Assembly: GCA_964624765.1 (NCBI GenBank)
Contig: CAZUZO010000002.1
Span: forward strand, 15,495 to 79,494
Direction: 5' to 3'
DNA from: an uncultured Thiotrichales bacterium
GTDB lineage: Bacteria; Pseudomonadota; Gammaproteobacteria; HK1
Length of the DNA: 64,000 nt
Shown here: positions 29,896 to 46,310 of the stretch, piece after piece
Layout: the number at the start of each line of letters is the position of its first letter
Position numbering within the stretch: the first letter of the stretch is position 1
Notes under the pieces: generated by a model
Told to the model about the DNA's origin: nothing
The model's input: the letters and a program-made list of their open reading frames with translations, nothing else
Database searches by the model: none
Translations under genes and position numbers: made by a program

Positions 29896-30582
29896 ATGAG
29901 CATCAAGTGTGTTACGTTCGATTTGGACGATACGTTGTGGGATTGTGAACCGGTGCTCGCGCGTGCCGAGGCGGTACTGTACGACTGGTTGGCTTGTAAT
30001 TATCCGCGAGTGGTCGATCGCTATTCCGCGGGCGAGTTGACTGCCCATCGTAAGGACTACGTCTCGCGTTATCCGCAGCTGCAGCATGATATCACGTTGC
30101 TGCGAAAGCAGTGGCTGACCTTTATTCTTACCGAATCCGATTATGATCCGGAGTCTGTCGAGACCGGATTCAAGCTATTTTGGCTCGCGCGTAACGAGGT
30201 GGCTCTATTTGAAGGTGTCCGGCAGGTGCTGAACGCGCTGCAGGGTGTGTATCTTTTGGGTGCCATTACCAACGGCAACGCCGATGTTTATCACATCGGA
30301 ATCGGCCACTACTTTGATTTCGTGGTGACAGCGGCGGAGGCAGGCGTCCCCAAGCCCAATGCGCGGATCTTTCAGCTGGCGCTGGCGAAGGGCCGCGTGC
30401 GAGCAGAGGAAACGGTGCATGTGGGCGACGATCCGCAGCGCGACGTCATGGGTGCTGGGGCGGTGGGTATGCGCACAGTCTGGATCAATCCGCACCGACG
30501 AGCCTGGGACGGTACGGAAACCCCCGATGCGGTGATCTCGTCTGTCACGCAATTGGGTGCAGTGCTGGAATCTTGGACATAA
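29896..30582 (+). CDS. HAD-IA family hydrolase
   Basis: Motif I VTFDLDDTLW, a late motif VGDDPQRDVMGA, and a cap domain between them. Confidence 0.85.
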   Translation: MSIKCVTFDLDDTLWDCEPVLARAEAVLYDWLACNYPRVVDRYSAGELTAHRKDYVSRYPQLQHDITLLRKQWLTFILTESDYDPESVETGFKLFWLARNEVALFEGVRQVLNALQGVYLLGAITNGNADVYHIGIGHYFDFVVTAAEAGVPKPNARIFQLALAKGRVRAEETVHVGDDPQRDVMGAGAVGMRTVWINPHRRAWDGTETPDAVISSVTQLGAVLESWT

Positions 30583-30602
30583 TCTTGGGAGTTCAAAGCA
30601 TT

Positions 30603-30836
30603 ATGGCTATTCGGGTCCGTTACTTTGCTAGCTTGAGGGAGCGCATGGGGCGAGCCGAGGATCGCCTGGACGTGGGACGGATCACCACGGTGGAGGACGT
30701 CTGGCGCAAAGTTTCGGGTGAAAGGGCTTTGCCGGCGAACACGCTCATGGCGATCAATATGCAATATGCAGACAGCACTCAGCGGGTCTGCGACGGAGAC
30801 GAAGTGGCCTTTTTTCCGCCGGTGACGGGGGGCTGA
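30603..30836 (+). CDS. moaD: MoaD/ThiS-family sulfur carrier (molybdopterin synthase small subunit-like)
   Basis: MAIRVRYFASLRERMG...DGDEVAFFPPVTGG ends in the diagnostic GG. The track ORF start at 30573 overlaps the HAD gene, so ATG 30603 is preferred. No moaE is adjacent. Confidence 0.8.
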   Translation: MAIRVRYFASLRERMGRAEDRLDVGRITTVEDVWRKVSGERALPANTLMAINMQYADSTQRVCDGDEVAFFPPVTGG

Positions 30837-30966
30837 GAGGTTGTGAAAAAACCGTAGCGAGCGGCCCGAGAGCAAGGCGGAACGCTGTTCAAAATCGTGC
30901 CAGACGATTTTGTCGCCGCCGTGCGCCTTGCTCTGCCGGCGCGCGCGACAGTTTTACAACAGCTTG
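30837..30966. mobile_element. hybrid type-2/type-1 element, near-perfect 130-bp palindrome
   Basis: Left half has the type-2 terminus and core arm (GAGGTTGTGAAAAAACCGTAGCGAGCGGCCCGAGAGCAAGGCGG). The centre is a CAAAATCGT-GCCAG-ACGATTTTG hairpin. The right half is the reverse complement of the type-1 left end (GCGCCTTGCTCTGCCGGCGCGCGCGACAGTTTTACAACAGCTTG). It fills exactly the gap between the moaD stop (30834-30836) and the kinase stop (30967-30969). Confidence 0.85.
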
Positions 30967-32262
30967 TTAGGGGTGATTGGTGACGAGCCGGCCGGTTGTT
31001 GAGCCTAGACGATCGATTAGGATGGCCACAAAGGCTTGATAGAAGCGGTGCTGACAATGCGCTGAGGTGGCATTGAGGAGCCCTGTGTTGACCCGCAGCG
31101 CTGAGACGCGGGTTTGCGCGATCACGTTAGCACTGCGCTTTCGTTTACCTAACGCGCCCATTTCGCCGAAGCAATCCCCAACACTCAGGGTCGCGATGGT
31201 AGCCTCGCCTCGTCGCACGAGGACGCTTCCGGAGGCAATGATAAAGAAGTCTGCGGCAGTCTCCCCTTCTAGGAGGATGTTCACCCCCGCCGCGAATTCC
31301 TGCCAGGTGCTGGCATGGATTACCTCGGCTATCTCAGAGCGCGAGAAATCCGTAAAGAAACGAAGTTTCGCGATGCGCTCGAAGGAGGTCTGGTCGGTTA
31401 GCTTTTTGCTCCGGCGCCGAGAGCTGTCTAACACGAGGCTGAGATCTCCGGCCAAATCCATACCAGTCTTGTAGCGGTCTTGTGGATGCTTTTGCAGTGC
31501 TCGATGCAGGATTCGTCCTACCAGGGGCGAGACATCGGGCCTTAGAGCTTTGACCGATTGGGGGTGCTCGTGAAGGATGCGATGCGCGATGGAGGCCAGG
31601 GTATGGCTGGCGAAAGGATGCTGGCCCGTGAGTAGCTCGTACATGACGACGCCGAGGGAGAAGAGGTCGGTTTGCGGGTTGACGATCTCCTCGCGTACCT
31701 GTTCTGGTGACATATATAGTGGAGAGCCGACATAGCCCAAGAACTGGGTGTTGGTGACATCGAGCTGAGAGGCGATGGCGATGCCAAAATCCCCGATTTT
31801 GACGTCTTGGGATTCGGTCAGCAGAATATTTCTCGGCTTGATGTCGCGGTGAACGACTCCATTTCGGTGGGCGTAGTCCAGTGCCACGGCGCAGTTTCGG
31901 ACGGCGTTGATGACGTCTCTAATGGGCAGCAGGCTAGCGGGTTGACAGTGCGCTTGCAGCGTACGCCCCCCTGGAATGTATTCCATGACAAGGTAGTAGA
32001 GGTCGTCGACGATGCCTGCGTCATAGACGGAAACGATGTTGGGGTGTTGCAGTATCTTGGCGATCTTGGCCTCATTGAAGAAAAGCTTACGGTAGCGTTC
32101 GCCCTCCTCAGCGTGATGCAGGACTTCCGGATGGGCCACCTTGATCGCGACCTCCTGATGGGTTAAGGGATCGTGGCCGAGGTATACGCTACCCATATTC
32201 CCGCGCCCGATTGGTTTGACGATAAAGTACTGCCCAAGGGTGCGGTTTTCTAAGCCTTCCAT
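30967..32262 (-). CDS. Ser/Thr protein kinase with C-terminal cyclic-nucleotide-binding domain
   Basis: Kinase motifs GRGNMGSVY, AIKV, HRDIKPRNIL, DFG and SPEQ. The C-terminal CAP_ED-like domain contains GDCFGEMGAL. The track ORF starts at TTG 32406, but ATG 32262 (MEGLENRTLGQY) is preferred. Confidence 0.85.
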   Translation of the reverse strand: MEGLENRTLGQYFIVKPIGRGNMGSVYLGHDPLTHQEVAIKVAHPEVLHHAEEGERYRKLFFNEAKIAKILQHPNIVSVYDAGIVDDLYYLVMEYIPGGRTLQAHCQPASLLPIRDVINAVRNCAVALDYAHRNGVVHRDIKPRNILLTESQDVKIGDFGIAIASQLDVTNTQFLGYVGSPLYMSPEQVREEIVNPQTDLFSLGVVMYELLTGQHPFASHTLASIAHRILHEHPQSVKALRPDVSPLVGRILHRALQKHPQDRYKTGMDLAGDLSLVLDSSRRRSKKLTDQTSFERIAKLRFFTDFSRSEIAEVIHASTWQEFAAGVNILLEGETAADFFIIASGSVLVRRGEATIATLSVGDCFGEMGALGKRKRSANVIAQTRVSALRVNTGLLNATSAHCQHRFYQAFVAILIDRLGSTTGRLVTNHP

Positions 32263-32597
32263 GGTCTTTGGTGGATATCCGAGAGAGGGTGAGGAGGGGC
32301 TGATTTGTGACAGCGCAGCGGGTCGAACGCCATGGCGCGTGGTCGATAACGTGATTGAGAAGGGTACGGGATGGCCCTCGTTAGCCGATTGACCTGGATC
32401 GGCCAAAGAGGGGGGCTGCCGAGCGTCGCGACCGCCCCTCGGCTAGATGCCGCCAGGGCGAGTACAGCGTGTTGGCCCATAATGGCTAAGTGGGGAATAG
32501 GCTGCGGGGAAGCCATGCTAGCGACGTTGAGGATTTCTGGGTGACGTCCTATAGGTTTTGAATCGTCGCGCCATCGAATCACAGAAGAGGATTTTAT

Positions 32598-46094: not shown

Positions 46095-46310
46095 GAAGCT
46101 GTTTTAAAAATGTCACGAGCGCCGGCAGAGCAAGGCGCACAGCGGCGACAAAATCGTCTGGAACGATTTTGAACAGCTGCAAGCTGGCCCCGAAGGGGCG
46201 AGCCCCAAGGATGGGGCGAGTCACCACCGGAGTGTACAAGGGAGTACAGAGGATGGCGAGCCGCTGCGCAACGCAGCTGAGGCAAGCGCAGTAGTTTTTA
46301 AAACAGCTTC
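46095..46310 (+). mobile_element. type-1 inverted-repeat element, long form (216 bp)
   Basis: Full architecture. Flanks are TAC (46092-46094) and TAA (46311-46313). It ends 24 nt before the transporter ATG. Confidence 0.9.

Follow-up and report, generated by a model that had tools for sequence, protein, structure and literature searches.

A stop-to-stop imperfect palindrome between convergent moaD-like and kinase genes is a probable chimeric remnant of two IS5-type MITEs

Two convergent genes, one for a MoaD-like protein and one for a protein kinase, are separated in the window (the whole 64,000-nt stretch of DNA analysed here) by a spacer of 130 nt, and all of that spacer, 30837-30966, is taken up by a palindromic element. 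This arrangement raises the question of what the element is, how it came to reach exactly from one stop codon to the other, and whether it acts on the 3' ends of the two transcripts. The sequence-only reading had given the element these borders, equated it with the entire convergent intergenic region, and described it as a hybrid of two repeat types, type 2 (T2) and type 1 (T1), with a perfect 11-bp pairing between its arms and the hairpin of the long T1 module in the middle. On each of these points it proved right, as the ORF list, the profile and BLAST searches and the following features reveal.

30573..30836, + strand: moaD-like gene of the ThiS family with a C-terminal Gly-Gly (ORF list; Pfam PF02597, E 3.7e-14)
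30837..30881, + strand: stump of a T2 MITE, model positions 1-45 (nhmmer, 35.9 bits; 2 mismatches to the 176-copy consensus)
30846..30851, - strand: A6 on the + strand, which is U6 right after the long stem in the kinase transcript (sequence and folds)
30869..30934, unstranded: 11-bp perfect core pairing, AGAGCAAGGCG at 30869-30879 with CGCCTTGCTCT at 30924-30934 (pattern match)
30882..30966, - strand: stump of a long type-1 MITE (T1L), inverted, model positions about 1-86 (nhmmer positions 2-86, 79.5 bits; 88-94% identity to other T1L copies)
30890-30898 / 30904-30912, unstranded: inner hairpin from T1L, 9-bp perfect stem and 5-nt loop, CAAAATCGT-GCCAG-ACGATTTTG (repeat finder)
30967..32406, - strand: Ser/Thr protein kinase gene with a C-terminal cNMP-binding domain (Pfam PF00069, E 7.6e-53; PF00027, E 9.8e-14; ORF list)

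The left part of the element consists of the T2 terminal repeat GAGGTTGTGAAAAAACC followed by the AGAGCAAGGCG core, and the right part carries the terminal repeat and core of T1L, together with the first of the hairpins in the 76-nt long-form module; BLAST and profile searches agree that element positions 48-129 represent the inverted first 82-86 nt of T1L. The core motif is common to the left arms of T1 and T2 and has 13 matches in the window as compared to 1.6 expected, while hairpins of the inner type number 5 in the window with none expected. Searches against Rfam 15 returned no match for the element, nor any in the window at gathering score. On the moaD side, the encoded protein ends in FFPPVTGG and is closed by the TGA stop at 30834-30836, which sits in a CTGAG context, the preferred T2 target. 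On the other side, the TAA stop of the kinase gene (TTA on the + strand, 30967-30969) lies in a CTAA context typical of T1 flanks. Each half of the hybrid is thus bordered by the typical flank of its own family, CTGA before T2 and TTAG after T1. The two families meet at T2 position 45 and T1L position 86, the latter lying inside the 76-nt module past its first hairpin, and neither breakpoint coincides with a module boundary, a TNA or a CTNAG site. Comparison of the junction with the consensus sequences showed no internal duplication, and microhomology amounts to 1-3 nt at most.

To place the element, the T1 and T2 families were surveyed in the genome from which the window derives (G000, a draft of 3.39 Mb in 218 contigs with 59% GC). 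The families comprise a short type-1 form (T1S, 143 nt), the long form T1L (217 nt) and T2 (141 nt), all with terminal inverted repeats. A non-overlapping census counted 858 segments, making up 3.1% of the genome; full-length profile matches numbered 260 for T2, 97 for T1L and 60 for T1S, and about 290 further segments were internal partial copies. Being small, bounded by terminal inverted repeats, devoid of coding capacity and present in many copies, both families have the properties of MITEs. Identical 3-nt flanks surround 224 of 311 intact copies (72%), which corresponds to a target-site duplication of fixed length: T1 is flanked by TNA and T2 by TGA or TCA, in a CTNAG target context. An IS5_3-type transposase gene on contig C138, cut by the contig end, has the terminus GAAGCTGTTTGGAAAGTC / GAAGCTGTTT followed by TNA, and all 10 of its 10 terminal nucleotides are the same as in the T1 terminus. 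In another genome of the same taxonomic family (G009), an IS5_3 element of about 890 bp occurs in some 40 copies with ends GAACCTGTTCAAGATC, TNA duplications and CTNAG targets. Judged by these IS5_3 ends, the TNA duplications and the CTNAG targets, T1 and T2, with their 3-bp TNA target duplications, are most likely IS5-type MITEs. The end match concerns T1; our searches found no autonomous partner IS for T2.

Two other candidate parents were discarded. A transposase fragment at C4:5100-5690 of G000 ends beside ...TAAAACAGCTTC followed directly by TTA, and the intact copy in G001 gives the IS982 end ...CGAACTCACGT; IS982 was rejected as the T1 parent, as the IS sits inside a T1 copy. This IS982-family transposase copy (C4:4200-5690) lies within a T1 element, 12 nt short of the right terminus of T1, and a further transposase gene, on the opposite strand, interrupts the copy in turn. 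Autonomous elements were also sought among paired T1 or T2 ends spaced 0.4-3 kb apart, and all of these pairs enclose ordinary genes.

The survey yielded several observations on how these repeats are built. A T1 element itself bears the preferred target of T2, and T2 is nested in T1 at CTCAG near T1L position 188 in five places in G000 (C56:16092-16406, C40:18806-19128, C119:6528-6855, C9:20527-20849 and C76:15711-15970). The 76-nt module with three hairpins (window 46140-46234) sets T1L apart from T1S. It aligns to the full Rfam model RF02902 (AaHKsRNA22, Aggregatibacter sRNA 22) with a score of 34 bits (E 7.4e-5), the gathering score being 39.8. In E. coli, 86 of 5426 genomes have a stretch of 77% identity to it between genes, next to a DUF3486 gene (L117:1501-1570), and there the first stem has a G-C to A-T change. 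The module thus seems to travel across Gammaproteobacteria. A MITE of G009 (L124:990-1113, L118:1035-1160) shares a T1/T2-like core, AGCGAGCGGCC...GCAAGGCGCACGGCG...GTGTA...TACATGAG..., and has different termini, GAGGACCTCTAAAAACC; the core is kept while the ends vary, which suggests that transposon ends of different kinds make use of one core. A likeness of the T1 core to the Correia element of Neisseria was also considered and is not claimed, nor is membership in that family.

With lengths of 141-217 nt, hundreds of copies, no coding content, terminal inverted repeats and TNA duplications at CTNAG, T1 and T2 resemble IS5-derived bacterial MITEs. The 130-nt element is not itself a working MITE: it combines a T2 left end with a T1 left end, its flanks are discordant (TGA vs TTA), and it is present as a single copy. 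No other match covering positions 1-130 was found in G000 or in the two related genomes G001 and G002. We take the element to be what is left of two MITEs, probably of IS5 type, as a chimera that no longer moves; in kind it is ordinary.

We next turn to the exact fit between the two stop codons. Because the duplicated target is TNA, an insertion into TGA or TAA copies the stop, which is regenerated at the border of the element. In G000, the flanking triplet is the stop of a predicted gene in 58 of 388 intact copies (15%), whereas neighbouring offsets give about 2-3 each; the gene calls behind these and all further genome-wide counts of stops, spacers and orientation were made with a crude caller of our own. 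Stop codons account for 229 (9.5%) of the 2400 non-coding CTNAG sites that no element occupies, so the observed 15% is only about 1.6 times what target choice and avoidance of coding sequence predict. At about 7.5% per end, two to three double-ended cases would be expected among several hundred elements, and a single one is not surprising. The stop-to-stop fit therefore follows from TNA target choice and not from design. A MITE that duplicates TNA can sit in a stop codon and leave the protein as it was, and the essential Gly-Gly C-terminus of MoaD is untouched here.

The description of the element as a near-perfect palindrome turned out to be too strong. Its ungapped 47-nt arms (30833-30879 / 30924-30970, repeat finder) are 70% complementary, and a gapped self-alignment reached 73% over 112 nt. 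The left arms of T1 and T2 are about 69% identical over their first 54 nt and share the core, as judged by hand comparison of the consensus sequences, and cross-family profile matches agree with their homology. The imperfect palindrome, with its complementarity of about 70%, arises because these homologous left arms stand head to head. Fold-back copying was excluded as its origin, the arms coming from different families. Structure prediction for both transcripts gave -67.5 kcal/mol for the + strand (z -3.5) and -61 kcal/mol for the - strand (z -4.3), and 0 of 200 shuffles folded as well. As modelled, the structure is real and beyond chance. Per nucleotide, the hybrid reaches -0.46 to -0.475 kcal/mol, and the T1S, T1L and T2 consensus sequences, which fold end to end when intact, reach -0.41 to -0.50 kcal/mol. 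The hybrid is not special in this respect: its predicted fold is shared across the family and does not surpass that of any intact copy. In addition, a hand comparison with the consensus found no sign of co-adaptation of the two arms, changes that reduce pairing being about as many as those that improve it. A second head-to-head derivative with the architecture of the hybrid lies 1.8 kb upstream of the window (G000 C2:13567-13696); it consists of a T1 left arm, a hairpin region and an inverted T1 left arm (31-1), so that both arms are T1, and is flanked by TGA and TCA.

The moaD/kinase junction was then compared in G001 and G002, which belong to the same genus as G000. G002 has kept the order of HAD hydrolase gene, moaD and convergent kinase gene, with a repeat-free spacer of 325 bp that contains a 5' remnant of a DUF255/Thioredox_DsbH gene; in G001, this gene stands intact beside the kinase gene. 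Where G000 has the element, the relatives have 0.3-1 kb of other DNA with the DUF255/thioredoxin-like gene or its remnant, and the only DUF255 gene of G000 is a 35%-identical paralog elsewhere in the genome. Neither the G001 nor the G002 junction contains a T1 or T2 profile match. The sequence-only reading had proposed related genomes as a source of the pre-insertion sequence. In G002, the moaD ortholog ends in GGC-TGA-G, an empty CTGAG target with no repeat after it, and a longer, unrelated spacer follows. Since the junctions of the relatives lack the element, it is restricted to the G000 lineage. Both relatives carry a T1 mini-derivative of about 75 nt (1-30 plus 92-141; L010:2503-2577 and L011:3003-3077) at the same place upstream of their kinase genes; no counterpart was found on that side of the G000 kinase gene.

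The reading that we favour, with a probability of roughly 70%, is that the spacer consists of the fused stumps of two separately inserted MITEs, joined by a deletion. A T2 copy would have landed in the CTGAG around the moaD TGA stop, and a T1L copy, facing the other way, in the TAA that closes the kinase gene. As each insertion would duplicate its TNA target, both genes would keep a stop exactly at the element boundary. A later deletion would then have removed T2 positions 46-141, T1L positions 87-217 and all DNA between them, leaving two left-end stumps head to head, an imperfect inverted repeat around the T1L hairpin. We infer the deletion and, because the relatives are distant (kinase 68% identical), also the order of events; the intermediate, with intact T2 and T1L at the two stops and DNA between them, was not seen among the compared genomes. 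Each stump lies in sense orientation to the gene that it abuts, which is the favoured orientation genome-wide. Other T1/T2 chimeras occur in G000:

C9:19579-19716: T1S positions 1-97, then inverted T2 positions 43-3, the closest analogue of the hybrid; flanks discordant
C27:25026-25083: T2 positions 1-45, then the last 14 nt of T1; flanks ambiguous
C183:112-269: T1/T2 chimera; flanks discordant
C77:153-248: T1/T2 chimera; flanks discordant

All clear chimeras have discordant flanks, whereas 72% of intact copies are concordant, which fits the deletion fusion of independent insertions and not transposition as a unit. The idea that modules recombine between the subfamilies, put forward by the sequence-only reading, therefore holds in one respect: subfamilies do get joined, here and in other chimeras. 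As an exchange of modules it is not supported, since the breakpoint cuts the 76-nt module and the clear chimeras with discordant triplets fit deletion fusions. The chimera on C9 (19579-19721) lies between yebC and ruvC, with its T2 end abutting the TAA stop of yebC.

The same sequence could in principle have been formed by other routes. If one MITE had inserted into or beside the other, the compound could have been trimmed by internal deletions within a single site, with no loss of host DNA at that step and an independent loss of the DUF255 remnant. Nested and abutting T1/T2 pairs are indeed common, with 24 mixed-family adjacencies that include T2 at CTCAG near T1L position 188. However, the breakpoints at T2 45 and T1L 86 are not TNA or CTNAG sites, the junction lacks an internal duplication, and the outer flanks are the stops of two different genes, requiring two targets at least 130 nt apart, so we consider a one-site compound unlikely. 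A related candidate, in which T1L positions 1-86 form a self-contained mini-element beside the T2 stump, is not supported, as there are no matching TNA flanks at the junction; the inner T1L end GATTTTGAACAGC resembles an IS5-type end, and three other loci stop at 85-88, none of them with matching TNA flanks. It is very improbable that the hybrid belongs to a mobile chimeric subfamily and was transposed here as one unit. A terminal repeat is present at both ends, and these ends are related (GAGGTTGTG... / CAAGCTGTTG...), but they come from families with different target preferences, the TGA/TTA flanks are discordant, the hybrid is single in G000 and absent from G001 and G002, and the pattern of the T2/T1L junction had no match in the metagenome contigs scanned. 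Finally, in a draft of 218 contigs, many of which end in T1/T2 repeats, two repeat-ended contigs might have been wrongly joined. Such an artefact is scarcely credible: the HAD-moaD-kinase order shared with G002 argues against misassembly, and the T2/T1L junction has no long shared word that an assembler could have used.

Regardless of how it was formed, the element may act at the ends of the two mRNAs. After the long stem, the kinase transcript continues with GG-UUUUUU and the moaD transcript with AG-UUUU, and an A-tract lies on the other side of the stem in both; the tract on the + strand is only T4 (30952-30955). The stem comprises about 50 bp, is mismatched and encloses a 44-nt interior. 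As modelled, a long hairpin of -60 to -67 kcal/mol would form the end of each of the two convergent mRNAs. It would probably act as a barrier to 3' exonucleases and may serve as a terminator, the kinase strand being the likelier case. By the crude gene calls introduced above, elements occupy 27% of convergent, 24% of divergent and 17% of tandem spacers, and T2 copies are oriented in sense 79 times vs 35 times in antisense upstream of genes (p 5e-5) and 25 vs 8 times at exact stops. For T1L, 30 copies are in sense and 9 in antisense relative to neighbouring genes (p 0.001). The T2 and T1L counts alike may include a bias relative to replication direction. Spacer occupancy and orientation bias hint that expression matters for which copies survive.

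It is against this background that the main functional alternative has to be weighed, namely that selection has kept the element because it works as a bidirectional intrinsic terminator or stabilises the 3' ends of the moaD and kinase mRNAs, with the transposon origin being only its history. The strong predicted fold on both strands speaks for it, as do the A-tract before and the U-tract after the stem, an arrangement known from bidirectional terminators and with a U6 on the - strand, the preference for convergent (27%) over tandem (17%) spacers, and the orientation bias of T2 and T1L relative to their neighbours. MITE hairpins are also known to affect transcripts in other bacteria, with RNase III cleavage at Correia repeats and RNase E effects at 3' ERIC copies (review, PMC10969869). 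In contrast, a consensus terminator scan found 0 sites on the element, whose loop exceeds the limit of the scan, the tail on the + strand is only U4, and a heavily mismatched stem of about 50 bp with a 44-nt interior is unlike typical terminators. Moreover, intact copies fold just as well, the arms show no sign of mutual adaptation, and the relatives manage without the element. We thus regard selection for such a role as possible, though doubtful. A broader proposal combines both lines: the hybrid would mark the place where a deletion between two MITEs took out a decaying DUF255 gene, and T1/T2, which occupy 3% of the genome, are biased in orientation and have 15% of their intact copies exactly on stops, would have been recruited throughout the genome as two-way 3' hairpins next to stop codons, where they end convergent transcripts or protect them. 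We offer it as a speculation that is rather unlikely to hold in full.

The element can be set beside several known systems. Its symmetric order of A-tract, stem and U-tract, which can be read on both strands, resembles that of bidirectional Rho-independent terminators between convergent genes. It differs from them in the much greater length of the stem, the many mismatches, the 44 nt enclosed and the U4 tail on one strand. Correia and ERIC elements are co-transcribed with flanking genes, often near gene ends, and they duplicate TA, compared to TNA for T1 and T2. The Correia (NEMIS) elements of Neisseria and the ERIC elements of enterobacteria share with the hybrid the inverted-repeat build, forming long hairpins that change the fate of transcripts via RNase III or RNase E (PMC10969869). 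In Streptococcus pneumoniae, BOX, RUP and SPRITE elements insert into or beside one another and form composite intergenic blocks, as T1 and T2 do here, and the SPRITE elements look like terminators (PMC10969869). BOX, RUP and SPRITE are, however, unrelated to T1 and T2 in sequence. In the hybrid, moreover, both partners have lost their inner parts, as a fusion by deletion would explain better than nesting alone.

Taken alone, the element matters little, being debris of an ordinary kind of mobile DNA and a by-product of a very abundant repeat family. It illustrates that two homologous arms facing each other head to head are enough to give a palindrome of designed appearance. More generally, dense MITE populations leave chimeric stumps with discordant flanks, and these mark deletions between neighbouring copies. 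If the hairpin terminates transcription or stabilises mRNA, the locus would be a further case of MITE-derived 3'-end elements. With a genome of 3.4 Mb in G000 vs 3.8-4.7 Mb in its relatives, deletion from MITE to MITE may be a route of gene loss in this lineage.
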